From contig CAWDRG010000011.1 of the NCBI GenBank assembly GCA_963804645.1, positions 160,001 to 224,000 of the forward strand: DNA of 64,000 nucleotides. The letters run 5' to 3'. Shown here one piece after another: positions 31,716-59,787 of the stretch (position 1 is its first letter; every line of letters begins with the position of its first letter). The position numbers and the translations under genes were made by a program. This DNA comes from an uncultured Bacillota bacterium. GTDB taxonomy: Bacteria; Sysuimicrobiota; Sysuimicrobiia; Sysuimicrobiales; Segetimicrobiaceae. Below the pieces are notes generated by a model, which made no database searches, was not told the DNA's origin, and saw only the letters and a program-made list of their open reading frames with translations.

Positions 31716-31862
31716 CCACGCACCCCCTGGCGCATCCGCCGGTCAGCGGCATGCACACACCAATCGCCTCGGGGTACCACCCGCACCCAATTCGGCCCAC
31801 GCGTGCCGCGCCGTCGCCCTGGTTCATCACTTCGACGATAGCAACGGCGCCGCGCTCCGCCT

Positions 31863-31880
31863 ATCCGTCCGCGGCCCGAT
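31863..31880 (-). promoter_or_regulatory. ATCSG-N8-CSGAT site upstream of molybdoenzyme 1
   Basis: Read toward the gene: ATCGG GCCGCGGA CGGAT, 22 bp, then TATCGT (31835-31840). Confidence 0.75.
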
Positions 31881-31946
31881 TCCTCGCCGGGACGCAATGC
31901 CCCGGACCCGCGCGGGCGCGCGGGTCCGGGGAGACATCGCACGGCG

Positions 31947-32663
31947 TCAGAACGCGGCGCGCCGGGGGACGTGCATGGCGTGCCGCAGCCAGGCCTCGTC
32001 CCGCTGCAGGTACTCGTCCAAGAGACTCGCGGCTTCGCGATAGAACGCGGTCGCGGCTCCCGCCCGCACGTCCACGACCCATTCGGGCACCCAGCGGCGC
32101 AGATGCCGGTCGAGAAACTTCAGGCGCTTGGCGAGCGCCTCGGGGGCGTCGCCCGCCGCGAGCTGCTCGGCGGATTCCAGCGCCAAGTGCTGCATGATCG
32201 CCAGTTCGACCGCGATGTGATCGGCCGGCGCATGAAACTCGTCGCCGACCCGGACGCCCTCTGTGCGCAGCCACGTCGTGACGTCCCCGAGCGCCTCCCC
32301 GTAGAACCGCCGCTCCGGACTCGTGTACACCGATTCGTACGGCGGCGCGAGCCCGGGGCCCGGCCCGATAAACAACCGTGCGTAGTCCACGGCCATCTCC
32401 TCGACCGTCGTCCCGGGATCGAGGTCCCGGGACGACGTGAGGCACTGCAGGAGGGGCCCGGCTTCATCCCCGACGCCGCACGCCACGGCCAGTTCCACGA
32501 GCGACGCCCGCGTCTCGTCGCTGCACAGGCGCACCCACGCGTCCTGGGTCAGTTCACGCGCGAACGCGCCCGACAGCAGCCCGTACAGTTCTGCGCGGGC
32601 CGCCTGGGCCGCCGCCTGGCGGCCCCCCGGCGACTCTAAGACGTCCTGGCCGTTGGCAACCAT
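31947..32663 (-). CDS. TorD/DmsD-family maturation chaperone
   Basis: YARLF, PPYESVY, PADHIAVEL and FLDRHL..W; starts 1 bp after the stop of molybdoenzyme 2. Confidence 0.93.
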   Translation of the reverse strand: MVANGQDVLESPGGRQAAAQAARAELYGLLSGAFARELTQDAWVRLCSDETRASLVELAVACGVGDEAGPLLQCLTSSRDLDPGTTVEEMAVDYARLFIGPGPGLAPPYESVYTSPERRFYGEALGDVTTWLRTEGVRVGDEFHAPADHIAVELAIMQHLALESAEQLAAGDAPEALAKRLKFLDRHLRRWVPEWVVDVRAGAATAFYREAASLLDEYLQRDEAWLRHAMHVPRRAAF

Positions 32664-32664
32664 G

Positions 32665-35064
32665 TCAGGCTCCCGCCGGCGCCGTGAACGCCAGGACGGC
32701 CGGCGGCGTCCCCACATACTTCTCGATCTGCACGAGCGACGTGTGCGACGGGTTGCCGTCGGACAGCTTCGAGTTCGGTGCGTCGGTCGTCACGTTATTG
32801 ACGCTCCCGTGGCGGTCGAGCGTCCCGGCCGCCCCGGCGTTCAGCGGATCGTACCAGCCGCCCTCGTGCATCGCGACCACGCCGCGCCGCGTGCGCGCAG
32901 TCACGATCGCGCCCGCGAGCGTCTGTCCACGCCCGTTGTACACCCGCACGATATCGCCGTTGGCGATGCCCCGGGCGGACGCGTCCGCGGGATTGATCCA
33001 GATCGGCTCGCGTGCGCCGACCTCATACTGCTGCCGCAGCCGCGTCTCGTCGATCTGCGAGTGCAGCCGATCCGGCGGGTGCGGGGTGAGCAGATGCAGC
33101 GGGAACTGCGCGGTCAGGGGGCTGCCCAGCCACTCGCTCGGCGCGAGCCACGTCGGGTGCGGCGGGCAGTCGTCGTACTTGAACGACGCGATGGTCTCGG
33201 AGTAGATCTCGATCTTGCCGGACGGCGTCCCGAGCGGGTGGCTCTGGGGGTCGGCGCGGAAATCGCCGTACCCGACCAGCTGCTCGGCGGCCGCGGTCAC
33301 CGGGAACTCCATGTAGCCCTGCTTCCAGAACGTGTCGAAGTCGGGGAACGCGAGCCCGCGCTCCTGCGCCTGCTGCGCAGCGACCCCGTAGAACTGCCGG
33401 AGCCACGCCATCTCGTCCTTGCCCTCGGTGTACTGCGGGCCGAACCCGAGCCGCGCGGCCAGCGCGGCGCAGATGTCGAAGTCGTTGCGGGACTCGAACA
33501 GCGGCGGCACGACCTGCTGCATCGCCGCGATAAACGTGCTCGTGGCCACGAGGTCGTTGCGCTCGAGCGTCGTGGTGGCAGGCAGCACGATGTCCGCGTG
33601 CTTCGCGGTCGCGGTCCAAGCGTACTCGTGCACGATCGTGACCTCGGGCCGCTGCCAGGCGCGCACGACGCGGTTGACGTCCTGCGCGTGGTGGAAGTTG
33701 TTGCCGCCGGCCACGTACACCATCTTAATGTCAGGGTACGTGATCCGCTGGCCGTCGTAGTCGATCGTCTTGCCGGGGTTCAGCAGCAGATCGGTCCACA
33801 TGTTGATCGGCACGAAATCCTTCACAGGGTTCGTGCCCGTGGTCAGCCCCGGAACGGTGGGCGCAGTGCCCACCGGGGCGCCGATCCGCGCGGGGAAGTC
33901 GATCTGGATGCCGCCGCCGGGCAGCCCGAACTGGCCGAGCATCGCGGACAGCGTGATCATCATCCAGACAGGCTGCTCGCCGTGCGACGCGCGCTGCAGC
34001 GGGTAGCCGCCCATGAACACGGTCCTCGACTTCGCCATGCGGCGCGCGAGCGTGCGCATCGTATCGGCGGAGACTTCCGTGATCGAGGCGGCCCACTCGG
34101 GCGTCTTCGGCTGCCCGTCGGTCTTGCCGGTCAGATAATCGGCGAACTGGGCGAACCCGACGGTGTACTTATCGAGGAACGCCTGGTCGTGGAGCTTCTC
34201 CGTGTACAGCACATACGCCATACCGAGCATCATCGCCGTGTCGGTGTTCGGGCGGATCACGATATGCTCGGCCTTCAGGAACTGGTCGGTGTCCGTGACG
34301 AGCGGGTTCACGGACACGACGGGGATCTTCGAGTCCCGGAGCTGCGTCACGTAGTTCATGATCAAGTGGCCGCCGTCGCCGGACAGCACCTTCGCGTTGA
34401 CGAGCGGATCGTACCCGAACGTGACGACGAGGGTGCTGTTCTTGAGCAGGCTCGGCCACGCCGATCCGCGCGGCGCCGCGTCCCCGACGACGTGCGGGCT
34501 GATCACCGGCAGCGTCGGCGCGCTGTACGAGTTCACGTAGTAGACGAACCCGCCGTACTGGTTGAACATCCGCTGGATCGCTCCGACAGCCCCGTGGAAC
34601 TTCCCAGGGCTCTGCCAGCCGTAGCTGCCGGCGTAGATCGCGCGGTTGCCGTACTGCGTCTTCACGCGCTTCATCTCGCCCGCCACGATGTCCAGGGCCT
34701 CGTCCCACGACACCCGCACGAACGGCTCGCTGCCGCGCCCGGCCGTATCGCTGGCGGACCGGTTCTTGTAGAACCCCTGGCGGATCATCGGGTACTTCAC
34801 GCGGGCGGACCCGTACAGCAGGTCCGGCATGACGGTCACCATCGCGTTCGGATGCGGATCCTTCACGAACGGCATCGTGCGCACTACGCGGCCGCTCACG
34901 ACCTCGGATGTGAACAAACCCCAGTGCGCGTTATTCAGCTTGGTCACGACCATCGTGTCCGTTTGGCCGCTCACCGGGAGCGCCCCGAGCAACGGCGCCG
35001 CGGCCAGGCCTCCTACCACTGCGCCCCCCTGCCACAGAAACGTTCGCCGTGTAATCGGTTTCAT
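32665..35064 (-). CDS. Tat-exported TorA/DorA/BisC-type molybdoenzyme, paralogue 2
   Basis: TRRTFLW, AHWG, SYGWQSPG, NSYS (Ser ligand), QRASHGEQ and RLHSQ. Confidence 0.94.
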   Translation of the reverse strand: MKPITRRTFLWQGGAVVGGLAAAPLLGALPVSGQTDTMVVTKLNNAHWGLFTSEVVSGRVVRTMPFVKDPHPNAMVTVMPDLLYGSARVKYPMIRQGFYKNRSASDTAGRGSEPFVRVSWDEALDIVAGEMKRVKTQYGNRAIYAGSYGWQSPGKFHGAVGAIQRMFNQYGGFVYYVNSYSAPTLPVISPHVVGDAAPRGSAWPSLLKNSTLVVTFGYDPLVNAKVLSGDGGHLIMNYVTQLRDSKIPVVSVNPLVTDTDQFLKAEHIVIRPNTDTAMMLGMAYVLYTEKLHDQAFLDKYTVGFAQFADYLTGKTDGQPKTPEWAASITEVSADTMRTLARRMAKSRTVFMGGYPLQRASHGEQPVWMMITLSAMLGQFGLPGGGIQIDFPARIGAPVGTAPTVPGLTTGTNPVKDFVPINMWTDLLLNPGKTIDYDGQRITYPDIKMVYVAGGNNFHHAQDVNRVVRAWQRPEVTIVHEYAWTATAKHADIVLPATTTLERNDLVATSTFIAAMQQVVPPLFESRNDFDICAALAARLGFGPQYTEGKDEMAWLRQFYGVAAQQAQERGLAFPDFDTFWKQGYMEFPVTAAAEQLVGYGDFRADPQSHPLGTPSGKIEIYSETIASFKYDDCPPHPTWLAPSEWLGSPLTAQFPLHLLTPHPPDRLHSQIDETRLRQQYEVGAREPIWINPADASARGIANGDIVRVYNGRGQTLAGAIVTARTRRGVVAMHEGGWYDPLNAGAAGTLDRHGSVNNVTTDAPNSKLSDGNPSHTSLVQIEKYVGTPPAVLAFTAPAGA

Positions 35065-35161
35065 CGTCCGACCTCCCTCTCATGTCACGCCCATGTGGGC
35101 GTGTCGCCCTTGAGATATGCGTCCGTCATCCTCAGCCTACAGGGCCCGAGCGAAACGAGAC

Positions 35162-35179
35162 ATCCGTCCGAGGCCCGAT
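35162..35179 (-). promoter_or_regulatory. ATCSG-N8-CSGAT site upstream of molybdoenzyme 2/TorD
   Basis: ATCGG GCCTCGGA CGGAT, 22 bp, then TAGGCT (35134-35139). Confidence 0.75.
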
Positions 35180-35297
35180 TTCGCGCGCATCACCGCCCGA
35201 CCGCGCCCCGCGCCGGCGCAGGCCCCGGCGCGAGGCACACCGAACCACACGGGAGCACGCACCGAGCCACACACGCTTCCACGAGGGGGACACGTCG

Positions 35298-35621
35298 ATG
35301 GCACTTCCAACCGCGTACGAGGACTTTCAGAAGAAGTACCCTGGAATCTGGCAGGCCTACGATCGCCTCGGCGCCGCGGCGCACGCGGCCGGACCGCTCG
35401 ATGAGAAGACACGCGCGCTGGTGAAGCTCGGCATGGCGGTCGGACGCCAGGCGGAGGGGGCCACCCACGCGCATGTCCGGCAGGCGGTGCGGGCCGGAGC
35501 GACGCCGGACGAGATCCGCCACGTCGTCCTCCTGGCGATCACCACCCTGGGGTTCCCCGCGATGATGACCGCCCGCACCTGGGTCGAGGAATCCCTGTCA
35601 GGCCGGAACGCCACTCCCTAG
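35298..35621 (+). CDS. Carboxymuconolactone decarboxylase (CMD/AhpD-fold) family protein
   Basis: GPLDEKTRALVKL, HAHVRQA...GATPDEI and TTLGFP; no CxxC; GAGGGGG RBS. Confidence 0.88.
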   Translation: MALPTAYEDFQKKYPGIWQAYDRLGAAAHAAGPLDEKTRALVKLGMAVGRQAEGATHAHVRQAVRAGATPDEIRHVVLLAITTLGFPAMMTARTWVEESLSGRNATP

Positions 35622-35701
35622 GACGACCGCCTCACGAACGCGCGAGCGCACGGCGGCCCTCCCGGATCCGATCGCGGGAGGGCCGCCGCACGCCGGGACG
35701 G

Positions 35702-36418
35702 CTACTGCGGCTTCGCGTGTGTCTGCAGGTACTTGAGCACCAGCGCCAGATCTTCCCCGGCGAGCCCTCCGTTCGAGGCCATGGCCTGCAGGTTGCCCGG
35801 CCACTGGTTCGCCGTAAACTGGTCCGGCGCGTACAGCGAGTGACACGTGCTGCAGTGCGCCTCGTACACCTGGCGGCCGTGCGTCCAGACGGCCTGGACG
35901 TCGGACGTGAGCGCGCTGGTGGCGACCCAGCCGCTGAGCGTGACCTGCGTCCACACCGTGCCGTAACTGTCCTTCGTCTGCGCGCCGAGCTGCCGCTGCG
36001 CCTGGTCGGGCTGGGTCACGTTCGCGAGGATGATCCGCTCCCCGACCGCCGTCACGACCGCGTTGCTCCCGGCGGACGAGTAGCCGGTGATGCTCACCTG
36101 CGCGTCCGCCCCCTGCGTCGTCGTCACGGTCACGGGCGTGCCCGGGGTCACCGTCCCCACCGCCGCGCCACCCGGGGCCTTCAACAGCTGCGCGGTCCCG
36201 GTCGTGTACGAGGTGCCCGGCCCCGCGGCTGCCAGCGCCGGCTCGAGCGCGGACGCCGCCAGCAATGACGCGGCGGTCCCGCCCACCGCACGGGACAGGC
36301 CCGGAGTCTCCGGCGCCGGCCGCTGCTGGTCGGTCCCGAGTCGGCCCGCACCGCTCCAGCCCATCGCGATGATCGCGGCCGCGGCCGCCGCGATCACCCA
36401 TGAGTTCACACGTCGCAT
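35702..36418 (-). CDS. Exported monohaem cytochrome c resembling the C-terminal domain of TorC/DorC
   Basis: Signal/anchor, single CSTCH, followed by FTANQW...M...L..YLQ.HA. Confidence 0.85.
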   Translation of the reverse strand: MRRVNSWVIAAAAAAIIAMGWSGAGRLGTDQQRPAPETPGLSRAVGGTAASLLAASALEPALAAAGPGTSYTTGTAQLLKAPGGAAVGTVTPGTPVTVTTTQGADAQVSITGYSSAGSNAVVTAVGERIILANVTQPDQAQRQLGAQTKDSYGTVWTQVTLSGWVATSALTSDVQAVWTHGRQVYEAHCSTCHSLYAPDQFTANQWPGNLQAMASNGGLAGEDLALVLKYLQTHAKPQ

Positions 36419-36510
36419 TCGCCACAACTCCCTTCACTACGCACTGCCACGGACATCTCACGCGCGCCCTGATGGGAGCATACCCCACCGCGCCGCTCGG
36501 CGGTACCCCA

Positions 36511-38916
36511 TCAGGCGCCGGGCGGCGGGGTGAATGCCGTCACCGGCGGCGGGGTGCCCACGTACTTCTCGACCTCGACGAGCGCCGTGTGCGACGGATT
36601 CCCATCGGCGAGCCGCGAGCTCGGCGTATCCATGGTTACCATATTGACGTTGCCGTGGCGGTCCAGGGACCCGGCCTGCCCGGGGTTCAGCGGGTCGTAC
36701 CAGGACCCTTCCCGCAGGACCGCAACGCCGCGGCGGGTCCGGGCCGTCACGACGGCGCCGGCCAGCGTTTGTCCGCGGTCGTTGAAGACACGCACGATAT
36801 CCCCGTTCGCGATCCCACGGGCGGAGGCGTCCGCGGGATTGAGCCAGATCGGCTCCCGCTGTCCGATCTCGTAGTCCGCCCGCAGCGGAGTCTCGTTCAG
36901 CTGCGAGTGCAGCCGTTCCTTGGGATGCGGCGACAGCAGGTGCAGCGGGAACCGCGACGCGATGGGGCTGCCGAGCCACTCGGCCGGCGGCACCCACGCG
37001 GGGTGCGGCGGCACGTCGTCGTACTTGAACGAGGCGATCTTCGCCGAGTAGATCTCGATCTTCCCCGACGGGGTGGACAGCGGGGCGTTGTCGGGATCCG
37101 CCCGGAACCCGGCGTACGCGACCGCCTGGTTGGCGCTCTCCGGAATCGGAAACTGCAGAAATCCCTGCTGCCAGAACGCGTCAAACTCGGGCAGGTCGAG
37201 CCCGCGGGTCTTTCCCTGCTGCTGCGCGGCGGCGTAGAACTGCCGGAGCCACGCCATCTCGTCCTTCCCCTCCGTAAACTGAGGGCCGATCCCGAGCCGC
37301 GTCGACAGCGCCGCAAAAATGTCGAAATCGCTTCTGGCCTCGAACACCGGCGGCACCACCTGCTGCATCGCGATGATGAACTTGTCGGTCGCGAGCAGGT
37401 CGTTTCGCTCGAGCGTCGTGGTGGCGGGCAGCACGATATCGGCGTGCTTCGCGCTCGCCGTCCACACGTAGTCCTGGACGATGGTCACCTCGGGGCGGCG
37501 CCAGGCATCCAGCACGCGGTTCGTGTTCTGCGCATGATGGAACGGATTGCCGCCGGCCCAGTAGACCAGCTTGATCTCGGGATAGGTGATGCGCTGCCCG
37601 TCGTAGTCGATCGTCTGCCCTGGATTCAGCAGCAGGTCGACCCACATGTTGACCGGCACAAAATCCTTCACCGGGTTGGCCCCCGCCGCGAAGCCCGGCA
37701 TGCCCGGCGCGCTGCCCACCGGCACGCCGAGTCCGCCCGGGAAGTTGATGTTGGCGCCCCCGCCGGGGAGCCCGAATTTGCCCAGCATCGCCGAGAGGGT
37801 GATCATCGCCCACACGGGCTGCTCACCGTGCGACGCACGCTGCAGCGAGAAGCCCCCGATCAGCTGGGTGTGCGAGCTCGCCATCCGCCGCGCGAGGGTG
37901 CGGATCGTGGCCGCCGGGATGTCGGTGATCGCCGCGGCCCACTCCGGCGTCTTCGGCTGGCCGTCCGCCTTCCCCGTCAGATAGTCGGTGAACGCGTCAA
38001 ATCCCACCGTGTATTTGGCGAGAAACGCGGTGTCGTGGAGGTGCTCGGTGTACAGCACGTGCGCGAGCGCGACGATCAGCGCGGTGTCGGTGTTCGGCCG
38101 GATCGCGATCCGCTCCGTGCGCAGATACTGGTCCGTGTCGCTCTCGATCGGGTTCACCGACACGACCGGGGTCCCCTTGGCCCGCAGCTGGGCGAGATAG
38201 CCGGCGTCGTAGTGCCCGCCGTCACCGCCCGACAGCACCTCGGCGTTCACGAGCGGGTCGTATCCGAAGAGCACGACGAGGGTGGCATTCTGGATGATCG
38301 TCGGCCACGCGGACGCGAGCGGCCGGGGATCGCCCAGGACGTGGGGGGTGATCACCGGCAGCACGGGCGCGCTGTACGTGTTCACGTAGGAGACGTACCC
38401 GCCGTACAAGCCGAGCATCCGCTGGAGCCCTTGCACCGCCCCGTGGAACTTGCCGGCGCTCTGCCAGCCGTAGCTCCCGCCGTAGATCGCGCGGTTCCCG
38501 TACTGGGTCTTCACCCGCTTGATCTCACCCGCGACGATGTCGAGCGCCTCGTCCCACGAGACACGCACAAACGGCTCGGTCCCGCGTCCCATCGTGTCGC
38601 TGCTCGACCGGTTCGTGTAGAACCCGCGACGGATCATCGGATACTTGATCCGGTTCGGCGCGTACAGCACCTGCGGCATCGCCGCGACCATCCGGTTGGG
38701 GTTCGGGTCGTGCGGGAACGGCATCGTGCGCGTGCACCGATCCCCCGTGATCTCCGCGGTAAACGCCCCCCAGTGGGCGGCGTTGAGCCGCGCCGCCGGG
38801 ATAATGTCCGCGGCGGCCGCCCGTCCGGACAACTCCGGGATCAGCGGAACGGCCACCAGCCCACCGACCGCTGCGCCGCTCTGCCACAGGAACGCTCGTC
38901 TCGTCAGTCTCCCCAC
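36511..38916 (-). CDS. Tat-exported TorA/DorA/BisC-type molybdoenzyme, paralogue 3
   Basis: TRRAFLW, AHWG, SYGWQSAG, NTYS and RLHSQ; GGAGGAGG RBS before GTG. Confidence 0.94.
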   Translation of the reverse strand: MGRLTRRAFLWQSGAAVGGLVAVPLIPELSGRAAAADIIPAARLNAAHWGAFTAEITGDRCTRTMPFPHDPNPNRMVAAMPQVLYAPNRIKYPMIRRGFYTNRSSSDTMGRGTEPFVRVSWDEALDIVAGEIKRVKTQYGNRAIYGGSYGWQSAGKFHGAVQGLQRMLGLYGGYVSYVNTYSAPVLPVITPHVLGDPRPLASAWPTIIQNATLVVLFGYDPLVNAEVLSGGDGGHYDAGYLAQLRAKGTPVVSVNPIESDTDQYLRTERIAIRPNTDTALIVALAHVLYTEHLHDTAFLAKYTVGFDAFTDYLTGKADGQPKTPEWAAAITDIPAATIRTLARRMASSHTQLIGGFSLQRASHGEQPVWAMITLSAMLGKFGLPGGGANINFPGGLGVPVGSAPGMPGFAAGANPVKDFVPVNMWVDLLLNPGQTIDYDGQRITYPEIKLVYWAGGNPFHHAQNTNRVLDAWRRPEVTIVQDYVWTASAKHADIVLPATTTLERNDLLATDKFIIAMQQVVPPVFEARSDFDIFAALSTRLGIGPQFTEGKDEMAWLRQFYAAAQQQGKTRGLDLPEFDAFWQQGFLQFPIPESANQAVAYAGFRADPDNAPLSTPSGKIEIYSAKIASFKYDDVPPHPAWVPPAEWLGSPIASRFPLHLLSPHPKERLHSQLNETPLRADYEIGQREPIWLNPADASARGIANGDIVRVFNDRGQTLAGAVVTARTRRGVAVLREGSWYDPLNPGQAGSLDRHGNVNMVTMDTPSSRLADGNPSHTALVEVEKYVGTPPPVTAFTPPPGA

Positions 38917-39082
38917 TGCGACCCCTCCTCCCGATCACTCGCCCCGCGGGACCGCCGCCGGCGAGCCTCGGCCCAGATCTGCCTCACTGATCCGCCCCGC
39001 GCCGCCGCCCCCAAGGGCGCCGGACCGTCCCCGGGCGCAGGACCGCGGCGTAACCGCGCCCCTGCGCCCGCCCACGATGCTC

Positions 39083-50572: not shown

Positions 50573-50590
50573 ATCGGGCCGACAGCCGAT
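50573..50590 (-). promoter_or_regulatory. Motif site upstream of the HlyD/ABC operon
   Basis: ATCGG CTGTCGGC CCGAT, 22 bp, then TACGGT (50545-50550). Confidence 0.75.
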
Positions 50591-50729: not shown

Positions 50730-50788
50730 GGCTCCCGCGGCCGATCGATGCCACACTGGACAGGGATAGACGTTCAGGAGGTCGGGCA

Positions 50789-51478
50789 ATGAAGTACGTC
50801 ACCGCGCGAGAGATCATGACTACGCCGGTCATCACCGTGCGACCCACGACCCCGATTCGCGACATCGCCGCGCTGATGCTCCACTCCGAAGTCAGCGGGC
50901 TGCCGGTCGTGGACAACGAGATGCACCTGCTCGGCCTCGTCACCGAGGACGACCTGCTGAGACGGGAGGAGGCACCGCTCGCGCAGCGCTCGGTCCTCTC
51001 CGAGCGCGCGCGCCCGCTGTGGCTCGAGCGGCTCCTGGAGCAGTATCAGGCGGCCGAGGCGGCGACGGCCCAGCAGCTGATGACGGCGTACGTCGAGACC
51101 GCCGACGAGGACACCCCGGCGCGCGACCTGGCGCGTCTCATGCTCAACCGGAAGCTGAACCGGGTGCTCATCCTTCGAAACGGCCGGCTCGTCGGCATCG
51201 TCACACGGGCCGACGTGCTCAAGGTGTTCGTGCGCAGCGATCAGGCGCTGGTCGATGCCGTGCGCGACACGCTGCGCCACGACCTCGATCTGGACCCGAC
51301 GCTCCTGACGATCACCTGCAAGAACGGCGTCGTCACGCTCGCGGGTGAGGTCGCCCGGCACTCGCAGCGCGCGCTCGCGATCAAGTGGCTGCGCACGATC
51401 GACGGGGTCGTCGGCGTCGACGCGGACGCGCTCACGTACCGCGTCGACGACCTGGCCCTCGGGCAGGTCGTCCGCTAG
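50789..51478 (+). CDS. CBS-pair + BON-domain protein
   Basis: VSGLPVVD, LVGIVTRADVL, NGVVTLAGEV...IDGVVGV; AGGAGG RBS. Confidence 0.9.
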   Translation: MKYVTAREIMTTPVITVRPTTPIRDIAALMLHSEVSGLPVVDNEMHLLGLVTEDDLLRREEAPLAQRSVLSERARPLWLERLLEQYQAAEAATAQQLMTAYVETADEDTPARDLARLMLNRKLNRVLILRNGRLVGIVTRADVLKVFVRSDQALVDAVRDTLRHDLDLDPTLLTITCKNGVVTLAGEVARHSQRALAIKWLRTIDGVVGVDADALTYRVDDLALGQVVR

Positions 51479-51497
51479 GCCCGGACCGTCCGATCCC

Positions 51498-54263
51498 ATG
51501 ACCGAGATCCGAGGAACGGCACCCCCCGGGGCGAAATCCAGCGGCATGACCGCCGCAGCCGCTCCGTATCCGTCGGGGCGTGAAACCGATGTCGTGCTCC
51601 GGGACGGCAGCACCGTCCACGTCCGCCCGATCAGGCCGGACGACGAGGCGCGCCTCCTGGAGTTGCTCCGCGGCCTCTCCGAAGAGGCGCGCGCGCAGCG
51701 GTTCTTCGGCACCACCTCCGACTCCGCGCTCGCGGCGTACGCCGCCCGGGCGGTGGTGGTGGACTACGTGCGCCGGTTCGGGCTGATCGCGATCGCGGGC
51801 GCCGCGGAACGCATCGTCGGGCACGGCTGCTACGACGCGAGCGCGGACGGCCAGGCCGAGGTCGCGTTCACCGTGGCCGATGAGTACCAGGGACACGGGC
51901 TCGGCACGATCCTGCTCGGCCATCTCGCGGAGATCGCCGCGCTCCACGGCATCCGGGTGTTCGAGGCGTTCGTCCTGCCGGACAACCGCCAGATGGCCGA
52001 TGTGTTCGCCAGCGCCGGGTTCCCGGTGCACACCGAGTTCACGGGGTATGAGCTGCGGGTCTCGTTTCCAACGTCGCTGACCGACGAGGCGCTCGACCGC
52101 TTCAACCGGCGGGATCAGATCGCCGCGGTCAACGCGCTCACGGCGTTCTTCGCCCCGCGCGGGGTCGCCGTGATCGGGGCCTCGCGGCGCCGGGGCACGA
52201 TCGGCGGGGAGTTGTTCCACAACCTCCTCACGTACGGCTTCGCGGGCCCGGTCTATCCGGTGAACCCCGAGGCGGCCGTCGTCCAGAGCGTGGTCGCCTA
52301 CCGGACGGTCGAGGAGATCCCAGGACCGGTGGACCTCGCGGTCATCGCGGTCCCGGCGTCCGCCGTCAGCGCCGCCGCGGAGGCGTGCGCCCGCAAACAG
52401 GTCCGGGCGCTCGTCGTCATCTCGTCCGGTTTCGCCGAGGTGGGGGAAGAAGGCCGCGCGCGGCAGGCCGAGTTGGTCCGCATCTGCGAGGAGACCGGGA
52501 TGCGGCTGATCGGCCCGAACTGCATGGGCATCGTCAATACCGATCCGGCGGTGCGGCTCAACGCGACGTTCGCGCAGCGGACGCCGCCGACCGGCCGGGT
52601 GGGATTTTCCTCCCAGAGCGGCGGACTCGGCCTCGCGATCATCGAGTACGCTCAGGCGCTGAATCTCGGCATCTCCACGTTCGTCTCCGCCGGCAACAAA
52701 GCGGACATCTCGGGCAACGACCTGCTCAACTACTGGGAATCCGACTCCAACACGGACGTGATCCTGCTCTACCTGGAATCGTTCGGCAACCCGCGCCGCT
52801 TCTCGCGGATCGCCCGCCGGGTCGCCCGCACGAAGCCGATCGTCGCGGTCAAGAGCGGCCGGTCGTCCGCGGGGGCCCGCGCGACCTCGTCCCACACCGG
52901 CGCGCTGCTGGCGGCCTCGGACACGACCGTCGACGCCCTGTTCCGGCAGGCCGGGGTGATCCGCACCGACACGCTGGAAGAGATGTTTGACGTCGCGACC
53001 CTGCTCGTGCACCAGCCGCCGCCGCCCGGCCGCCGCGTGGCGATCGTGACCAACGGCGGCGGCCCCGGGATCCTGTGCGCGGACGCCTGCGAGGCGCAGG
53101 GACTCACCGTGCCGGCGCTGGCCGCCGCGACGCAGGCGCGGCTCCGGGCGCTCCTGCCGCCGAACGCCAGCGTCCAGAATCCCGTCGACGTGATCGCGTC
53201 GGCCTCGGCCCAAAACTACCAGGACGCGCTCGAGGTGATTGTCGAGGACCCGGGCGTGGACGCGGTGATCGTCATCTTTATCCCGCCGCTCGTGACGCGC
53301 GCGGAAGACGTGGCGCAGGCGATCATCGCGGGCACGCGGGCCGTGCGCGGACGCAAGCCGGTGCTCACGGTGTTCATGTCGGCGCGCGGCGTCCCCGACG
53401 CGCTCACCGCGGCCGACGTCCGCATCCCCTCCTACACCTTTCCCGAGTCTGCGGCGATCGCGCTGGCCCGCGTCGCCCAGTACGGCGAGTGGCGCAACCG
53501 CCCGCTGGGCACCCCGCCGACCTTCGACGGCATCCGGCGGGAGGACGCCGCCGCGCTCGTCTCGGCGGCGCTCGGCCGGGGCGGTGGCTGGCTCACGCCC
53601 GAGGAATCGTACACGCTCCTCACCTGCTACGGGATTCCCGCCGCCGCGCAGCGTACCGCCGCGACGCCCGACGACGCTGCCCGCGCGGCGGACGAGATCG
53701 GCGGCGCGGTGGCGCTCAAGGCCGTGGGCGCGCAGATCCTCCACAAGAGCGAGTTGGGGGCCGTCCGTCTGGGCCTGCGCGGCGCCGCGGAGGTGCGCGC
53801 GGCCGCCGAGATGATGACCGCCTCGCTCACCGCCTCGGGCCATCCGCCGGACGGATTCCTGGTGCAGGCGATGACCGCGAGCGGCACAGAGATGATCGTC
53901 GGCGTGGTGCAGGACCCCCAGTTCGGAGCGGTCGTCGCCTGCGGAGCCGGCGGCACCCTCGTCGAGCTGATGCGCGACATGTCCGTGTGGCTCGCGCCGC
54001 TCGCGCGCGAGGACGCGGCGGACATGATCCGGTCCCTCCGCACGTATCCGCTGCTCACCGGGTTCCGGGGGCGCCCCGCGGCCGACGTCGCCGCGCTGGA
54101 AGACGTGCTCCTCCGGGTGAGCACCATGGCCGAGGATCTGCCCCAGATCATCGAGCTCGACTGCAACCCCGTGATCGTCCATCCGCACGGCGCCTCGGTC
54201 GTCGACGCGCGCATCCGGGTCGCGGCGACGGAACCGGCCTCGCTGCTGAAGCGCCGGGCGTAA
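51498..54263 (+). CDS. GNAT + NDP-forming acyl-CoA synthetase fusion (Pat-type protein lysine acetyltransferase architecture)
   Basis: LRDG.TVHVRPI and YQGHGLGT (GNAT); VIGAS, IGPNCMG, SQSG, GNKAD, SHTG; ATP-grasp HKSE.G.V...ELDCNP. Confidence 0.92.
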   Translation: MTEIRGTAPPGAKSSGMTAAAAPYPSGRETDVVLRDGSTVHVRPIRPDDEARLLELLRGLSEEARAQRFFGTTSDSALAAYAARAVVVDYVRRFGLIAIAGAAERIVGHGCYDASADGQAEVAFTVADEYQGHGLGTILLGHLAEIAALHGIRVFEAFVLPDNRQMADVFASAGFPVHTEFTGYELRVSFPTSLTDEALDRFNRRDQIAAVNALTAFFAPRGVAVIGASRRRGTIGGELFHNLLTYGFAGPVYPVNPEAAVVQSVVAYRTVEEIPGPVDLAVIAVPASAVSAAAEACARKQVRALVVISSGFAEVGEEGRARQAELVRICEETGMRLIGPNCMGIVNTDPAVRLNATFAQRTPPTGRVGFSSQSGGLGLAIIEYAQALNLGISTFVSAGNKADISGNDLLNYWESDSNTDVILLYLESFGNPRRFSRIARRVARTKPIVAVKSGRSSAGARATSSHTGALLAASDTTVDALFRQAGVIRTDTLEEMFDVATLLVHQPPPPGRRVAIVTNGGGPGILCADACEAQGLTVPALAAATQARLRALLPPNASVQNPVDVIASASAQNYQDALEVIVEDPGVDAVIVIFIPPLVTRAEDVAQAIIAGTRAVRGRKPVLTVFMSARGVPDALTAADVRIPSYTFPESAAIALARVAQYGEWRNRPLGTPPTFDGIRREDAAALVSAALGRGGGWLTPEESYTLLTCYGIPAAAQRTAATPDDAARAADEIGGAVALKAVGAQILHKSELGAVRLGLRGAAEVRAAAEMMTASLTASGHPPDGFLVQAMTASGTEMIVGVVQDPQFGAVVACGAGGTLVELMRDMSVWLAPLAREDAADMIRSLRTYPLLTGFRGRPAADVAALEDVLLRVSTMAEDLPQIIELDCNPVIVHPHGASVVDARIRVAATEPASLLKRRA

Positions 54264-54319: not shown

Positions 54320-54328
54320 TGGTATATT
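54320..54328 (+). promoter_or_regulatory. Extended -10 element of the kinase gene
   Basis: TG-G-TATATT ending 27 bp upstream of the ATG; no ATCSG motif at the 22-bp position. Confidence 0.5.
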
Positions 54329-54355: not shown

Positions 54356-55540
54356 ATGCCGCTCGGAAACAAAACCGGGGTCTTTCGAAGCCTTTCCCAC
54401 GTCCTCAACCGGTCGTTCACGCTGCGGGAGGCTCTCGACGGCGCGCTGCCGCGCATCGTCGAGCTCGCGGAGGCCGACGCGGGCTGGATCTTCCTGCGCA
54501 ACGCCGAGACCGAGGCGTTTACCCTGGCCGCCGATGTCAATCTGCCGCCCTCCCTCCTCGTCGCCGGACGGCGGCGCATGGCGGGCGAATGCCGGTGCAT
54601 CCAGATGCTCCGGGACGGGATGCTGACGCAGCCGGTGAACCTGGTCGAGTGCCTCCGGCTGGAGCAGGCGCTGCCGAACTCGCCGGACCGGCACCAGCAC
54701 GCGACGATCCCGCTCTTGTCACAGAACGAAACTACGGTGGGGATCTTGAACCTGCTGCTGCCTCCCGAACGAACGCTGAGCGAAGCCGACCTCAACGTCC
54801 TCGAGGCGCTTGGGCACGAGGTCGCGGTCGCCGTGCAGCGCGCCCACCTGTTCGAAACGGTGCGCGACCGCGAGGCGACGACGCGGGAGTTGATGCAGCG
54901 CCTCATGACGTCCCAGGAGGAAGAGCGCAGGCGGATCGCGCAGGACCTGCACGACCACGCCGGGCAGATCATGACGGCGCTGATCATGCAGCTCACCCAC
55001 CTGATCGGACATCTGAGCACCACGGACACGCAGAAGCTCACCGGCGAACTGGAGCGCTTTCGGGGCATCGCCGAACAGGGTCTCGACGAGGTCCACAAGC
55101 TCGTGTACGACCTGCGGCCGCTCATCCTCGACGATCACGGGCTCGGCCCGGCGGTCACGTCCTACGTGGAAACGCACATCCGTCCCGCGGGGCTGGAGGT
55201 CGATTTCAGGACCGTGGGACTGGAGGGCCGGCTGCCCCAGGAAACTGAGATCGCGGCCTACCGGATCATCCAGGAGGCCGTCACGAACACCCTGCGCCAC
55301 GCGGAGGCGAAACGGCTCGAGATTCGGCTCGATCGACGCAAGGACTGGCTGATCGTCATGGTGCGGGATGACGGCAAGGGATTTGACGTCGAGGACACGC
55401 CGCGCGCTTCAAAGAGCCTCGGCCTTCACGGGATGCGTGAGCGGGCCGAACTGCTGGGCGGGACGCTGCAGGTGCTGTCGGTGCCGGGCGCCGGGACCAC
55501 GATCCTTACGCGGCTCCCGTTCCTCACGCGTTCCGCCTGA
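54356..55540 (+). CDS. Cytoplasmic GAF-domain sensor kinase (HisKA_3, AirS/YhcY-like)
   Basis: No TM; GAF with C-x-C-x17-C and HATIPL; EERRRIAQDLHD, QEAVTN..RHA, DDGKGF and LGL.GMRER. Confidence 0.9.
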   Translation: MPLGNKTGVFRSLSHVLNRSFTLREALDGALPRIVELAEADAGWIFLRNAETEAFTLAADVNLPPSLLVAGRRRMAGECRCIQMLRDGMLTQPVNLVECLRLEQALPNSPDRHQHATIPLLSQNETTVGILNLLLPPERTLSEADLNVLEALGHEVAVAVQRAHLFETVRDREATTRELMQRLMTSQEEERRRIAQDLHDHAGQIMTALIMQLTHLIGHLSTTDTQKLTGELERFRGIAEQGLDEVHKLVYDLRPLILDDHGLGPAVTSYVETHIRPAGLEVDFRTVGLEGRLPQETEIAAYRIIQEAVTNTLRHAEAKRLEIRLDRRKDWLIVMVRDDGKGFDVEDTPRASKSLGLHGMRERAELLGGTLQVLSVPGAGTTILTRLPFLTRSA

Positions 55541-55616: not shown

Positions 55617-55802
55617 TCAGCTCGCCGGCCGCTCCGCGCCGGGCATTCTGGCCTCGGGCTTCGACACCGTCGCGGGGGGCGCTTCCTCGCCCGCCTCGCC
55701 GTAATAGCACTCCTCGCAGAACCGCATCACGATCCCGTCCCGTTCCAGTTCCTTGCGCACGGTGCGAAGGCCGCACTTCTCGCACGGCGATTGTGTCGTC
55801 AT
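55617..55802 (-). CDS. 61-aa CxxC...CxxC zinc-ribbon-like microprotein
   Basis: CEKC-x18-CEEC, GGGAGGT RBS and its own promoter motif. Confidence 0.75.
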   Translation of the reverse strand: MTTQSPCEKCGLRTVRKELERDGIVMRFCEECYYGEAGEEAPPATVSKPEARMPGAERPAS

Positions 55803-55864: not shown

Positions 55865-55882
55865 ATCGGGCCGACAGCCGAT
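55865..55882 (-). promoter_or_regulatory. Motif site upstream of the Zn-finger microprotein
   Basis: ATCGG CTGTCGGC CCGAT (identical to the 50573 site), 22 bp, then TAGGGT (55837-55842). Confidence 0.75.
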
Positions 55883-55967: not shown

Positions 55968-55985
55968 ATCGGCTAGGCAACCGAT
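55968..55985 (+). promoter_or_regulatory. Motif site upstream of the CSP gene
   Basis: ATCGG CTAGGCAA CCGAT, 21 bp, then TACCGT (56007-56012). A possible second weak site lies at 55944-55961. Confidence 0.7.
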
Positions 55986-56050
55986 GCGAACCCGTCGGCC
56001 ATCGTCTACCGTAAAGGGGACGTGATGCGGATTCGCTGGAGGTCACGGCA

Positions 56051-56284
56051 ATGAACTCATCCGCGCCGGTACCGGCGCCACGAATCATCGGGACCGTCAC
56101 CTGGTACAACAAGGTGACTGGCTTCGGCTTTATCCGAGTCGAGGGCATGAGCGACGTGTTCGTGAACGAAGCCGCCATCGACGTCCCCGGCCGCCGGGTC
56201 CTGCGAGAAGGAGAAACCGTGGAGCTTGAGATCGTGAACCGCGACGGCCGGCGGGAGGCGACGCACGTCGTCCCGGTGAACTGA
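56051..56284 (+). CDS. Cold-shock-domain protein (degenerate)
   Basis: GTVTWYN...GFGFI...DVFV...L.EG..V; GGAGG RBS. Confidence 0.85.
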   Translation: MNSSAPVPAPRIIGTVTWYNKVTGFGFIRVEGMSDVFVNEAAIDVPGRRVLREGETVELEIVNRDGRREATHVVPVN

Positions 56285-56373: not shown

Positions 56374-56793
56374 TCAGTGGACGATCAGCACCGGAACGCT
56401 CGCCCCGTGCAGCACCTGCTCGCTCACGCTGCCGAGAATCAGCCCTTGCACCCGGCCGCGGCCGCGACAGCCGACCACGATCAGGTCGGCGTGGACGCGC
56501 TTCGCCGTCTCGAGGATCGCCTGCGCCGGCTCGCCCTCCCGGGACACCGTGGTGACCCGGACGTGCGCGGTCGTGAACTGCTGCACGGCCTGGTCGAGAT
56601 ACCGGCGGCCCGCCTCCTCCAGCGACGCGTCGAGCGCGCCAAATTCCGCGCCGGCGCCGTACGCGAGGACCGGAATGTGCACGACGTGCACGACAACCAC
56701 CTCGGCGTTCGGCATGCCCGCGGTCAATCGGACCGCGAGCGCGACGGCGTGCTGCGCATGCGGAGATCCGTCAGTCGCGATGAGCAGACGCAT
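56374..56793 (-). CDS. Universal stress protein
   Basis: LIATDGS and VGCRGRG...ILGSVSEQVL...PVLIV. Confidence 0.94.
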   Translation of the reverse strand: MRLLIATDGSPHAQHAVALAVRLTAGMPNAEVVVVHVVHIPVLAYGAGAEFGALDASLEEAGRRYLDQAVQQFTTAHVRVTTVSREGEPAQAILETAKRVHADLIVVGCRGRGRVQGLILGSVSEQVLHGASVPVLIVH

Positions 56794-56838: not shown

Positions 56839-57222
56839 TCACCGTCCGGCGCCCACCGGCGCGCGCTCGTGGAGGTTCAGGAACAACTGAATGATGTCGG
56901 CCGCGCTCACGATCCCGAGCACCCGTCCGGCCTCGACGACCGGCACGCGCCTGACCATCTGGTCCAGCATCAGCGCGGCGACCTCTTCGACGGGCGCGTC
57001 GGGAGCGACGGTCACCGGATCGGCGGTCATCACGTCACGGACGCGCTGGCCCAGTTTCGCCGAGAGATCGACGAAGCTCACCATGCCCACCATCTGCTGC
57101 CGATCGTCCACGACCGGAGCGCCGTGGATGCGGTAGTGGAGCAGAGCGTCCCGCGCCTCGATCACGGACGTCTCGGGCGCGAGGGTGACGACGTCACTGG
57201 TCATGATCTCCCGTACTTCCAT
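56839..57222 (-). CDS. Stand-alone CBS-pair protein
   Basis: VREIMTSDV, APVVD and VPVV...LGIVSAADI. Confidence 0.9.
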   Translation of the reverse strand: MEVREIMTSDVVTLAPETSVIEARDALLHYRIHGAPVVDDRQQMVGMVSFVDLSAKLGQRVRDVMTADPVTVAPDAPVEEVAALMLDQMVRRVPVVEAGRVLGIVSAADIIQLFLNLHERAPVGAGR

Positions 57223-57290
57223 GGCCACCACCCCTTCCGGTGCACTCCCGACCTGCGGCTTTACCCTAGCATCCGCGCGCGAGCCGGGGC

Positions 57291-57308
57291 ATCGGGTGTG
57301 GACCGGAT
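57291..57308 (-). promoter_or_regulatory. Motif site upstream of CBS-USP pair
   Basis: ATCCG GTCCACAC CCGAT, 22 bp, then TAGGGT (57263-57268). Confidence 0.75.
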
Positions 57309-57326: not shown

Positions 57327-58286
57327 CTAGACTCCAAATGTCCCTTCCAGCTCGAACAGCGCCGTGTCGAGCGCCCGCGTGCCCGCGAGCGCCTCTTCGA
57401 TCGCCATGAGGGTCACCCGCCCGTTCTGCAGACCTGCGACGACCCCCGACCGCCCGTCGAGCAGCGCCTGGGTCGCCGTCGCCGCCGACCGGCTCGCGAG
57501 AATCCGGTCGAACGCCGTGGGCGCGCCGCCGCGCTGAACGTGCCCAAGTACGGTCGCTCTGGTCTCGGCGCCCGTGCGCTCGGTCAACTGGCGCGCGAGC
57601 GAGGTTCCGCTGCCCGCGCCCTCCGCAATGACGATGATCGTGTGGGTCTTCTGCGCGCGCTGGCGCGCCTCGATCCGGGCGGCGACCGCGGCCAGCTCCC
57701 ACGGTGCCTCGGGCACGAGCACGATGTCCGCCCCCGTCGCCAGCGCGGCGTGCAGCGCCAGCCATCCGCACCCGCGGCCCATCGTCTCGACGATAAAGGT
57801 TCGTTCGTGCGACGACGCCGTGTCGCGAATCCGGTCGATCGCCTCGACGATCGTGTTCAGGGCCGTATCGGCGCCGATCGTGATGTCGAACGCGGCAAAG
57901 TCGTTGTCGATCGTCGACGCGACGCCGACGGCGTGCACGCCCCGCCCGTGCAGGGCCAGCACACCGGCCTGGCTCCCGTTGCCGCCGATCACCACGAGGC
58001 CGTCCACCCCGGCGCGCTGCAGCGCCGCGGCGCCCTCGGCCTGACCCGCCTCGGTCCGGAACGCGGGGCACCGCGCGGTATGCAGAACCGTCCCGCCCTC
58101 TTCGATGATCCCCCCGACGGAGTTGGAGCCCAGCGAGATCACATCGCCCTGGATCAACCCGATGTAGCCGCGCTGGATCCCGCACACTTCCACGCCGCGC
58201 GAGATCGCCACACGCACGGCCGCCCGGATCGCAGCGTTCATGCCCGGCGCGTCTCCGCCGCTGGTGAGCACCGCCATGCGCTTCAT
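57327..58286 (-). CDS. pfkA: ATP-dependent 6-phosphofructokinase
   Basis: TSGGDAPGMNAAIR, GGNGS, TIDND, ETMGR and LGHVQRGG. Confidence 0.95.
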   Translation of the reverse strand: MKRMAVLTSGGDAPGMNAAIRAAVRVAISRGVEVCGIQRGYIGLIQGDVISLGSNSVGGIIEEGGTVLHTARCPAFRTEAGQAEGAAALQRAGVDGLVVIGGNGSQAGVLALHGRGVHAVGVASTIDNDFAAFDITIGADTALNTIVEAIDRIRDTASSHERTFIVETMGRGCGWLALHAALATGADIVLVPEAPWELAAVAARIEARQRAQKTHTIIVIAEGAGSGTSLARQLTERTGAETRATVLGHVQRGGAPTAFDRILASRSAATATQALLDGRSGVVAGLQNGRVTLMAIEEALAGTRALDTALFELEGTFGV

Positions 58287-58319: not shown

Positions 58320-59030
58320 TTACGCAACGCGGCCCGCGCGGGCGCGTGCGTGCCGCGGCACGGATCCCTGGGCGCCCCGCAGGACGCCGCGGAGGTGTGT
58401 CCAGATGGCGCGCGCGACGGCCGAAGCGGCGGGCGCCGCTGGAACATCGATGACGCGCGCCTGCCGCCGCAGAAACCGGAGCATCGGGCCGGTCTCGCGG
58501 CGAAACCGGCGCAGGCGGCGCCGGACCACGACGGGGGTATCATCGGCACGGCCGCGGCCGAGCAGCCGCGGCACGAACACGCGGTCCGCGCCCCGAAGGT
58601 TGACGACGATGAGCGGGTTTGCGAGGCGCGCGGCCTGCAGCAGCCGGAGCAGCTCCTTGGCCTGCCCCAACGTCCGGGGATAGCCATCGAGGATCGCTCC
58701 GCGCTCGGCGATGGGCCGTCGCTCCTTCCGGAGCGCTGCCGCGACCTCCTCGCGCACCAAGCCGTTCGGCACGAGCCGCCCGGCCGCGACGTACCGCGCC
58801 ACCTGCCGCCCGAGCCGCGAGTGATGGCGGATCTCGCTACGGAGCTGTTCGCCGAGCGCGATATACACGAAGTGATGCCGCGCGGAGAGCAGCGCCGCCT
58901 GTGTCCCCTTGCCGGAGCCCGGCGCGCCGATCACCAGCACGATCGGGGACACCGGGCGCCCCTCGGGCCAACGCGCGGCGCGCACCGCGCCGCGCGCGAT
59001 TCGCGCGGGCGGCGTCGACGACCTTGCCAC
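58320..59030 (-). CDS. Adenylate/NMP kinase-family protein (short, LID-less, very Arg-rich)
   Basis: GAPGSGKGTQA, GRLVP, LDGYPR and RGRADD. Start 59030 has a GGAGGAGG RBS; alternative start 58952. Confidence 0.82.
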   Translation of the reverse strand: MARSSTPPARIARGAVRAARWPEGRPVSPIVLVIGAPGSGKGTQAALLSARHHFVYIALGEQLRSEIRHHSRLGRQVARYVAAGRLVPNGLVREEVAAALRKERRPIAERGAILDGYPRTLGQAKELLRLLQAARLANPLIVVNLRGADRVFVPRLLGRGRADDTPVVVRRRLRRFRRETGPMLRFLRRQARVIDVPAAPAASAVARAIWTHLRGVLRGAQGSVPRHARARAGRVA

Positions 59031-59209
59031 AGAGACCCCCTCCTCCCGTCTCGCTCGGCCGCGTGTCCCGGCGACACCGGATCGGGGGATCGACCCTCCC
59101 ACCGGGTTCCCGGCCGATGGCATGCGCAATACGCCGGTCGCGATGCGGCCGGCGCGCGGACGGCGAACGCCGCCGCCCGTGCGCGGCACCGGCACCGTCG
59201 GATGCCCGC

Positions 59210-59698
59210 CTAGTCGGCCTCGCCGGTCACGGCCACGACGACCTTGCGCCGCTCCACCGCCGGCCTCTTGGGCATCACGATCTCCAGGACGCCGTGGGAC
59301 AGCGTCGCGCGCACCTGCTCGGCCATGACATCGCCCGGCAGGGCGATCGTGCGCGCGAAACGTCCGGCGACGCGCTCATTCAGCAGCACCGCGCCCTCGC
59401 CGGCGACGGCGCGGGAGCCGCGGACCGACAGGATGGTGCCCTCGAGCGAGATCTCGACGTCCGATTCGCGCACGCCGGGAAGGTCCGCGGTCACGACGAA
59501 GGCGGTCTCCGTCTCGCAGACGTTCAGCGCCGCACCGTAGGACACGGCCTCGTCGACGAGCTGCGCGTCGCCGCGCAGTTGCTCGTCCATCCGCTGCACG
59601 CGGTCCCGCAGCGCCTCGAAATCCCGCCAGGGGTCCCAGCGGCCGGGATGCCACCACTGCATGCCAGGCTGCGCCGTCCGGATGTGAAGAAGCGCCAT
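59210..59698 (-). CDS. Hsp20/alpha-crystallin small heat-shock protein
   Basis: ADLPGV, ER..GRFARTIALP and ATLSHGVLEI.MPK. Confidence 0.93.
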   Translation of the reverse strand: MALLHIRTAQPGMQWWHPGRWDPWRDFEALRDRVQRMDEQLRGDAQLVDEAVSYGAALNVCETETAFVVTADLPGVRESDVEISLEGTILSVRGSRAVAGEGAVLLNERVAGRFARTIALPGDVMAEQVRATLSHGVLEIVMPKRPAVERRKVVVAVTGEAD

Positions 59699-59769
59699 CG
59701 GATCCCTCCCGCCTCACCAATGATCTCGCGAGTTCACCACACTCATACCATGCCGCCGCGGTCGCGGGC

Positions 59770-59787
59770 ATCGGACGTCCACCCGAT
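59770..59787 (-). promoter_or_regulatory. Motif site upstream of hsp20
   Basis: ATCGG GTGGACGT CCGAT, 22 bp, then TATGAG (59742-59747, preceded by TGn). Confidence 0.7.

Follow-up and report, generated by a model that had tools for sequence, protein, structure and literature searches.

A fixed-spacing promoter dyad conserved across a mostly uncultured Bacillota-labeled lineage, and a NarL/LuxR-type response regulator as its candidate binder

In LuxR and TraR, a dimer with a GerE-type helix-turn-helix (HTH) binds an 18- to 20-bp dyad that is centered in the low -40s and substitutes for the -35 element. The staphylococcal NreBC system pairs a NarL-family regulator with a cytoplasmic sensor kinase and controls anaerobic respiration genes; NreB senses via a PAS Fe-S domain, and NreC binds a GC-rich palindrome different from the one described here. 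LiaS and VraS are membrane kinases with a LiaF or VraT partner. Here we describe an 18-bp dyad, ATCSG-N8-CSGAT, at a fixed distance from -10-like boxes in a 64,000-nucleotide stretch of DNA from an uncultured Bacillota bacterium (the window: GenBank assembly GCA_963804645.1, contig CAWDRG010000011.1, positions 160,001 to 224,000, corresponding to C11:160001-224000 of a 5.3-Mb genome, G000, with 22 contigs and ~70% G+C), together with the NarL/LuxR-type response regulator that probably binds it. For DevR (DosR) of Mycobacterium tuberculosis, Table 1 of PMC3177182 places the proximal Dev box 33-34 bp from mapped starts, and the same paper has the DNA-binding domain contacting G4G5G6A7C8T9 of each half-site of a 20-bp palindrome, with at least 2 boxes, bound cooperatively, at every DevR promoter. 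The operator frame of LiaR is T(X)4C(X)4G(X)4A in PMC4482077; there, a lysine of the recognition helix (LiaR Lys177, DosR Lys182, NarL Lys188) is described as important for consensus recognition, and a role of DosR Lys182 and Asn183 in base contact is given in PMC4482077 and in the title of a reference cited by PMC3177182.

The ATCSG-N8-CSGAT promoter motif is real and occurs in the window far beyond chance. The 9 exact matches all fall within 31863-59787; 100 dinucleotide-preserving shuffles gave 0.90 on average (maximum, 6; 0 of 100 reached 9), and a reading of the motif as chance or as a repeat element was rejected. An earlier reading made from the letters alone (the sequence-only reading) had listed eleven copies, nine exact and two (43905 and 50712) with a degenerate distal half; rereading the flanks returned all of them, with the promoter-proximal half intact in both degenerate copies, as well as every -10 hexamer and spacer as claimed (22 bp in nine sites, 23 bp in one, and 21 bp in one). 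Only two of the boxes, CACACT and TATGAG, depart from TANNNT, and the 18-mers at 50573 and 55865 are indeed identical. To the divergent regions with one copy per direction that were already described, we add a fourth pair: a new twelfth site at 41656 on the plus strand (ATACGTTCGGGACCCGAT-22-TATCAT, 1 mismatch) faces the site at 41591. The first 27 kb, previously said to hold no convincing copy, has 0 exact copies, and none of its seven 1-mismatch copies has a -10 box at 21-23 bp. The twelve candidate sites and their putative targets, including universal stress proteins (USPs), are as follows.

31863-31880, minus strand: candidate operator site 1, exact; -10 TATCGT at 31840-31835; putative target, S/N-oxide reductase-like gene 29232-31715.
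35162-35179, minus strand: candidate operator site 2, exact; -10 TAGGCT at 35139-35134; putative targets, TorA/BisC-like gene 32665-35064 and TorD-like chaperone gene 31947-32717.
41591-41608, minus strand: candidate operator site 3, exact; -10 TAGGCT at 41568-41563; putative targets, TorA/BisC-like genes 39083-41488 and 36511-38916 and probably TorC-like gene 35702-36427.
41656-41673, plus strand: candidate operator site 4 (new), 1 mismatch; -10 TATCAT at 41696-41701; followed by ~640 nt with no convincing open reading frame (ORF) and then CHAD-domain gene 42352-43290.
43905-43922, minus strand: candidate operator site 5, distal half degenerate; -10 TACCTT at 43882-43877; putative target, USP gene 43352-43789.
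43948-43965, plus strand: candidate operator site 6, exact, 23-bp spacer; -10 TATCCT at 43989-43994; putative target, CBS-BON gene ~44040-44708.
50573-50590, minus strand: candidate operator site 7, exact; -10 TACGGT at 50550-50545; putative target, exporter operon with HlyD 49219-50505, HlyD 47909-49219, ABC ATPase 45986-47116, and ABC-2 permease 44859-45989.
50712-50729, plus strand: candidate operator site 8, distal half degenerate; -10-like CACACT at 50752-50757; putative targets, CBS-BON gene 50789-51478 and GNAT/ADP-forming acyl-CoA ligase gene 51345-54263, with the kinase gene downstream.
55865-55882, minus strand: candidate operator site 9, exact, same 18-mer as site 7; -10 TAGGGT at 55842-55837; putative target, gene 55617-55802 for a 61-aa CxxC...CxxC zinc-ribbon protein.
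55968-55985, plus strand: candidate operator site 10, exact, 21-bp spacer; -10 TACCGT at 56007-56012; putative target, cold-shock-domain gene 56051-56284.
57291-57308, minus strand: candidate operator site 11, exact; -10 TAGGGT at 57268-57263; putative targets, CBS gene ~56839-57231 and USP gene 56374-56793.
59770-59787, minus strand: candidate operator site 12, exact; -10-like TATGAG at 59747-59742; putative targets, Hsp20 gene 59210-59698, adenylate-kinase-like gene 58320-59195, and ATP-dependent phosphofructokinase (ATP-PFK) gene 57327-58286.

Across the genome, the scan for enrichment and spacing that the sequence-only reading proposed gave a divided answer: exact copies of the dyad alone (84 in 5.3 Mb) occur at about the chance rate, but the fixed distance to the -10 box is strongly favored. 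TANNNT follows exact copies at offsets of 21/22/23 bp in 4/13/4 cases and at each other offset from 5 to 49 in 0-2, and it follows 1-mismatch copies at 21/22/23 bp in 8/14/9 cases against a background of ~4; together, these counts suggest roughly 40 promoters in the genome. The composite pattern ATCSG-N8-CSGAT-N21-23-TANNNT has 21 exact sites in G000, and 18/21 of them are noncoding versus 25/63 exact copies without a -10 box, as judged with a crude coding mask that is based on third-position G+C (GC3) and takes in only 63% of the genome. Two of the 21, C17:14678 and C8:113231, are identical AT-rich copies with an exact dyad and TATCTT upstream of an ISL3-family transposase (L014); these dyads are probably part of the insertion sequence and unrelated to the regulon. 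A limited full-text literature search found no description of such an ATCGG/CCGAT operator.

We examined promoter anatomy in 38 sites, combining G000 with a site-rich island in a relative, G041. Their extended consensus is rrA-ATCGGnY-N4-RnCCGAT-R, and the -10 box follows after 22 bp in 27 sites, 23 bp in 6, and 21 bp in 5. Within that box, conservation is limited to T, A, and the final T; there is no TG extension, and apart from a poor aTGgc supplied by the end of the site itself, no -35-like hexamer is present. Between -100 and -10 upstream, no tandem secondary box stands out at a constant offset (37-38 sites). The dyad fits the LiaR-type frame closely, with T2 in all 38 sites, Y7 in 37 (C in 25, T in 12), R12 in 37 (G in 24, A in 13), and A17 in 38. 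The edge of the site lies ~34-35 bp from the predicted start (a 22 +/- 1 bp spacer, the 6-bp hexamer, and ~7 nt). The dyad thus overlaps the -35 region at a fixed distance from the -10 box, in keeping with the activator-type geometry proposed earlier.

Two genes in the window are candidates for the signaling pair behind this operator, the second of which had been missed by the sequence-only reading.

28474-29151, plus strand: NarL/LuxR-type response regulator (REC plus GerE HTH), window copy, downstream of CBS gene 27701-28393; 82% identical to the copy on contig C22.
54356-55540, plus strand: soluble sensor histidine kinase, GAF-HisKA_3-HATPase_c, 394 aa, downstream of the operon behind site 50712; likely partner of the regulator.

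The second regulator copy (G000:C22:29299-29988) has its own site, ATCGGGTCTCCACCTGAT-22-TAGCTT, divergent from a cold-shock protein (CSP) promoter; no other classical transcription factor gene in G000 lies behind a site. Pfam identifies Response_reg (E 2.5e-29) and GerE (E 2.4e-22) in the window copy and the same domains in the C22 copy (2.5e-27 and 1.2e-21), and the regulator aligns full-length to VraR, NarL, and DevR structures, with the domain makeup of the NarL/FixJ family. Its best solved homologs are LiaR/VraR (E 5e-49 to 4e-45), then NarL (2e-35) and DevR (3e-34; fifth-best), and it is not in the DevR/DosR orthologous group. The conserved recognition helix of its orthologs reads KTVQ[S/T]H versus KTVKNY in DevR: Gln occupies the position of LiaR Lys177, DosR Lys182, and NarL Lys188, and Ser or Thr that of DosR Asn183. 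The change from Lys to Gln in the recognition helix provides a rationale for a distinct operator.

No kinase gene adjoins either regulator copy in G000. Beside the window copy, the ORFs at 25383-27664 match no Pfam family, and the frame at 25949-27625 is an MFS transporter; the kinase at 54356-55540 was found inside the island by a genome-wide HisKA_3 search. It has one GAF region (residues ~50-190, Pfam), and among solved chains (phmmer) it matches only the ATP-binding domains of DevS and DosT, not their GAF domains. NCBIfam gives no equivalog for the regulator or the kinase, with the best rows for the kinase far below cutoff (MctS, 139 of 700 bits; LiaS, 112 of 450). Directly upstream of the kinase gene lies an extended -10-like element, TGGTATATT, at 54320-54328, so that the kinase gene may be expressed from a constitutive promoter of its own in addition to read-through from site 50712.

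The closest named records to G000 are metagenome-assembled genomes labeled "Bacillota bacterium," and one set of 94 species genomes makes up both its GTDB class and its phylum (one order, 7 families, 31 genera). Of the 94, 82 carry the composite pattern, in up to 28 copies each, versus 0-1 per genome for a reversed-pattern control; as a regulon operator it is sharply defined, and its conservation extends over the entire phylum-level lineage. Regulator orthologs (E <= 1e-60) are present in 69/94 genomes and kinase orthologs (E <= 1e-50) in 71/94, and both co-occur with the motif: the median number of sites is 7 in genomes with the regulator (n = 69) versus 1 in those without (n = 25), and 7 in genomes with either protein (n = 75) versus 1 in those with neither (n = 19), with Mann-Whitney P values of ~1e-7 to 1e-8 that overstate significance because relatives are not independent. 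One unpublished genome among the 94 (G034) has no site and lacks both proteins. At 75 loci from outside the lineage, with regulators 39-56% identical, there were only 2 stray matches, neither upstream of the regulator gene. In many genomes across families (e.g., G041, G042, G043, G025, G056, G024, G059, G058, G040, G023, and G029), the kinase and regulator genes are adjacent or overlapping, which points to the kinase as the likely HisKA_3-type partner of the regulator; judged from this gene order, the two appear to be cognate partners whose genes have come apart in G000. A site with a -10 box is oriented to the regulator gene within 220 bp at 13/30 regulator loci, own genome included (10/15 in the window's own family and 3/15 elsewhere), and at 2/4 named close-relative regulator loci.

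In G041, assembled in 4 contigs, a 150-kb island contains 19 sites, with the kinase-regulator operon at its edge. Its targets in common with G000 are HlyD, DoxX, baeRF, CBS, and USP genes, and further targets include a sigma-70-family gene, an Rrf2 regulator, hemerythrin, HypA, a V-ATPase subunit, malic enzyme, and citrate synthase. The sigma-70-family gene is full-length (L152:11223-12329, equal to G041:C1:707223-708329) and, like the Rrf2-family gene (L156:19122-19613), lies behind a site, which suggests a regulatory cascade in G041.

The genes behind the sites in G000 are concentrated in stress, energy, and anaerobic respiration functions. Those in the window include four TorA/BisC-family S/N-oxide reductase paralogs (NCBIfam best rows just below curated cutoffs), a TorD-like chaperone, a TorC-like cytochrome fragment, two USPs, CBS and CBS-BON proteins, and an HlyD/ABC-2 exporter (Pfam, NCBIfam), as well as a GNAT-fused ADP-forming acyl-CoA ligase, the 61-aa CxxC...CxxC protein, a cold-shock protein, and the Hsp20/adenylate-kinase-like/ATP-PFK operon. 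Outside the window, G000 has a second island on C22 plus scattered sites, whose targets are more Mo-enzymes, a P-type ATPase, Nramp, an Fe-S flavoprotein, a PntA-like gene, a second CSP, a baeRF protein, and USP and CBS genes neighboring GAPDH. Six TorA/BisC-type paralogs and one type II DMSO-reductase-family enzyme (four in the window at 29232-41488, then L001, L013, and L015) all lie behind the same operator, an unusual multiplicity. A baeRF protein, with weak similarity to ribosome hibernation factors of the Rv2629 family, is behind a site in both G000 (L007, C22:30945-32129) and G041 (L151:16882-17982), which parallels Rv2629 in the mycobacterial DosR regulon.

Island genes are transcribed in peat metatranscriptomes. 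We compared the predicted starts with assembled RNA contigs from four metatranscriptome runs of one peat study (32 pieces among the matches listed, with 63 more). At six promoters, RNA contigs among the matches listed end 3-21 nt inside the predicted start, as follows.

Site 41591: contig end at 41541; predicted start ~41556.
Site 43948: contig start at 44022; predicted start ~44001.
Site 55865: contig end at 55817 (3 of 4 runs); predicted start ~55830.
Site 55968: contig starts at 56029 and 56030; predicted start ~56019.
Site 57291: contig ends at 57253, 57250, and 57244; predicted start ~57256.
Site 59770: contig ends at 59725, 59721, and 59717; predicted start ~59735.

Among the same matches, 0/32 pieces cross a site or -10 box. 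These ends are a weak hint, compatible with the predicted starts; stretches without contig cover (e.g., 45003-46336 and 49005-50338) are no evidence of silence. Behind the new site at 41656, ~640 nt (41702-42351) separate the predicted start from the CHAD gene, and one RNA contig covers 42105-42411. Rfam gave no match over the whole window; the stretch may represent a long leader or an RNA that has escaped annotation.

We infer that the dyad is the operator of the NarL/LuxR-type response regulator, which would be self-regulated, act as an activator overlapping the -35 region, and answer to the GAF kinase; we consider this explanation likely, though well short of certain. In the proposed mechanism, the soluble GAF-HisKA_3 kinase (54356-55540) would phosphorylate the regulator, and a phosphorylated dimer would bind the one dyad at each promoter. 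With its proximal edge 22 +/- 1 bp upstream of TANNNT, the dyad would span ~-52 to -35 and take the place of a proper -35 element, so that bound regulator could recruit RNA polymerase. The set switched on would be dormancy-like and anaerobic: S/N-oxide reductases with TorD/TorC-like partners, USP, CBS, CBS-BON, Hsp20, PFK, and adenylate-kinase-like proteins, along with the ADP-forming acyl-CoA ligase, cold-shock proteins, the HlyD/ABC exporter, the Rv2629-like baeRF protein, and the regulator itself. Our guess is that the signal would be oxygen, redox, or energy limitation.

Several observations weigh against this explanation, and part of them fit a different dimeric transcription factor that binds the dyad and has the NarL-type regulator gene merely as one target, which we regard as unlikely. 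The sequence-only reading had nominated the regulator at 28474-29151; its NarL-family kind is supported, but this window copy has no good operator site of its own, and it is the C22 paralog that carries one. No nearby oriented site is present at 17/30 regulator loci, leaving only 13/30 with one, and the G041 kinase-regulator operon has no site with <=1 mismatch and a -10 box within ~5.8 kb upstream. Three genomes have composite sites with no regulator ortholog: G005 (17 sites, a kinase fragment only; 86% complete, 460 contigs), G003 (5 sites, kinase present; 94% complete), and G036 (4 sites, kinase present; 96% complete). A tblastn search found no regulator near the kinase in G036 and G003, and the best NarL-type proteins of all three genomes have a different recognition helix. 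Conversely, all 8 genomes of genus g10 (G026, G031, and G064-G069) encode the kinase (~40% identity) and regulator (63-66%) yet have 0-2 sites; the operator or its spacing may have changed in this genus. That an Rrf2-family regulator and a sigma-70-family gene also lie behind sites in G041 would likewise suit another binder. Nevertheless, G000 and G041 share no other transcription factor behind sites, the regulator and kinase co-occur with the motif across the 94 genomes, and the dyad fits the NarL-family frame. The regulator gene is also often at contig ends in genomes of the lineage, which makes its loss from draft assemblies plausible. The RNA evidence has its own weaknesses: the contigs come from one study without a DNA control run and cannot show true 5' ends, and for the USP gene 43352-43789 the contigs of all four runs (43303-43688) reach only to 43684 or 43688, which leaves ~185 nt to the predicted start and is ~105 nt inside the ORF as called (start, 43789). 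Strain variation, an incorrect start, or an internal 5' end could account for these stops.

The same geometry invites two other accounts. Were the conserved CCGAT end the -35 element of an alternative sigma factor, the fixed spacing to the -10 box would follow, as would the better preservation of the proximal than the distal half at 43905 and 50712, and a sigma-70-family gene does lie behind a site in G041. We rejected this account as highly improbable: the motif has two-fold symmetry, and most sites keep both halves near-invariant; the 22 bp before the -10 box exceed what a sigma-70-type -35/-10 pair allows; and each of the divergent promoters has its own complete dyad. The dyad could also be a repressor operator, with the -35 region blocked by this regulator or by a different protein and the genes induced on release. 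A protein bound at ~-52 to -35 can block RNA polymerase, and the position of the site, which could equally serve a repressor, is a further point against activation. We nonetheless consider repression improbable. The promoters look intrinsically weak, with a -10 box that keeps only T, A, and the final T, no TG extension, and the poor -35-like aTGgc; the geometry equals that of DevR-activated promoters in PMC3177182; and the self-regulated two-component regulators of this family treated there and in PMC4482077 (DevR and LiaR) are activators.

With activation by the NarL/LuxR-type regulator as our preferred explanation, the system offers a lineage that has been seen almost exclusively in metagenomes a regulatory code that can be put to the test: one 18-bp operator with fixed geometry, the candidate regulator and kinase, and a list of targets. 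The motif could be used to predict stress- and anoxia-induced genes, including those for CBS-BON, baeRF, CHAD, and zinc-ribbon proteins of unknown function. The targets parallel the DosR dormancy regulon while the operator and recognition helix differ, and the system therefore amounts to a natural experiment on a specificity shift (Lys to Gln) in the NarL family with promoter architecture kept. A bolder possibility, which we hold to be doubtful, is that this lineage (94 species genomes, mostly uncultured and high-GC) has a dormancy/anaerobic program that is an independent invention of a DosR-like regulon. A NarL-family regulator would have swapped its specificity lysine for glutamine and so gained a new and unusually sharp operator (ATCGG...CCGAT); the single-GAF kinase would sense a ligand other than the heme-bound gases of DosS/DosT, and up to seven TorA/BisC-type S/N-oxide reductases would be under its command.

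Among described systems, DevR/DosR-DosS/DosT of M. tuberculosis and OsdR/OsdK of Streptomyces coelicolor share with this locus the pairing of a NarL-family regulator with a cytoplasmic GAF-HisKA_3 kinase. The distance from site to start is nearly the same (~34-35 bp to predicted starts here versus 33-34 bp for DevR in Table 1 of PMC3177182), self-regulation, predicted here, is common to both, and the gene sets overlap in USPs, Hsp20, CBS, phosphofructokinase, a P-type ATPase, an Fe-S protein, and the Rv2629-like baeRF protein, with the mycobacterial names taken partly from Table 1 of PMC3177182. The statement in the sequence-only reading that the motif is not the DosR box holds for the letters, although the dyad has the LiaR-type frame and shows the promoter geometry of DevR/DosR together with a DosR-like gene content. 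Positions A1 T2 C3 S4 G5 are conserved here, and with the inner C-N4-G aligned to the Dev box, only two G positions and the inner C coincide; the 16-nt OsdR consensus, AGGGCCGATCGGCCCT, also differs from the dyad. DevR Lys182 and Asn183 are not kept, being Gln and Ser/Thr here, and promoters in this lineage have one dyad, versus at least two boxes in DevR promoters as described in PMC3177182. DosS and DosT have two GAF domains, the first of which binds heme; in the kinase here, Pfam identifies one GAF region, for which phmmer gave no sequence match to theirs. The lineage is labeled Bacillota, whereas the DosR systems are from Actinomycetota.

LiaR and VraR of the Firmicutes are the closest solved homologs, and the dyad fits the LiaR frame, but the base-contacting Lys177 of LiaR is Gln here and the outer ATCGG is near-invariant. 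This is not a LiaFSR/VraSR system: the kinase is soluble and carries a GAF domain, and the targets are stress, energy, and anaerobic respiration genes rather than envelope genes. LuxR and TraR have the same dyad geometry but are controlled by ligand binding rather than phosphorylation, and their sequences and regulons are unrelated, while the likeness of NreBC to the pair described here is at the family level. A new kind of mechanism is not revealed by these comparisons; rather, the LiaR frame, the DevR/DosR geometry, and the DosR-like content together make this a new operator within a known kind.

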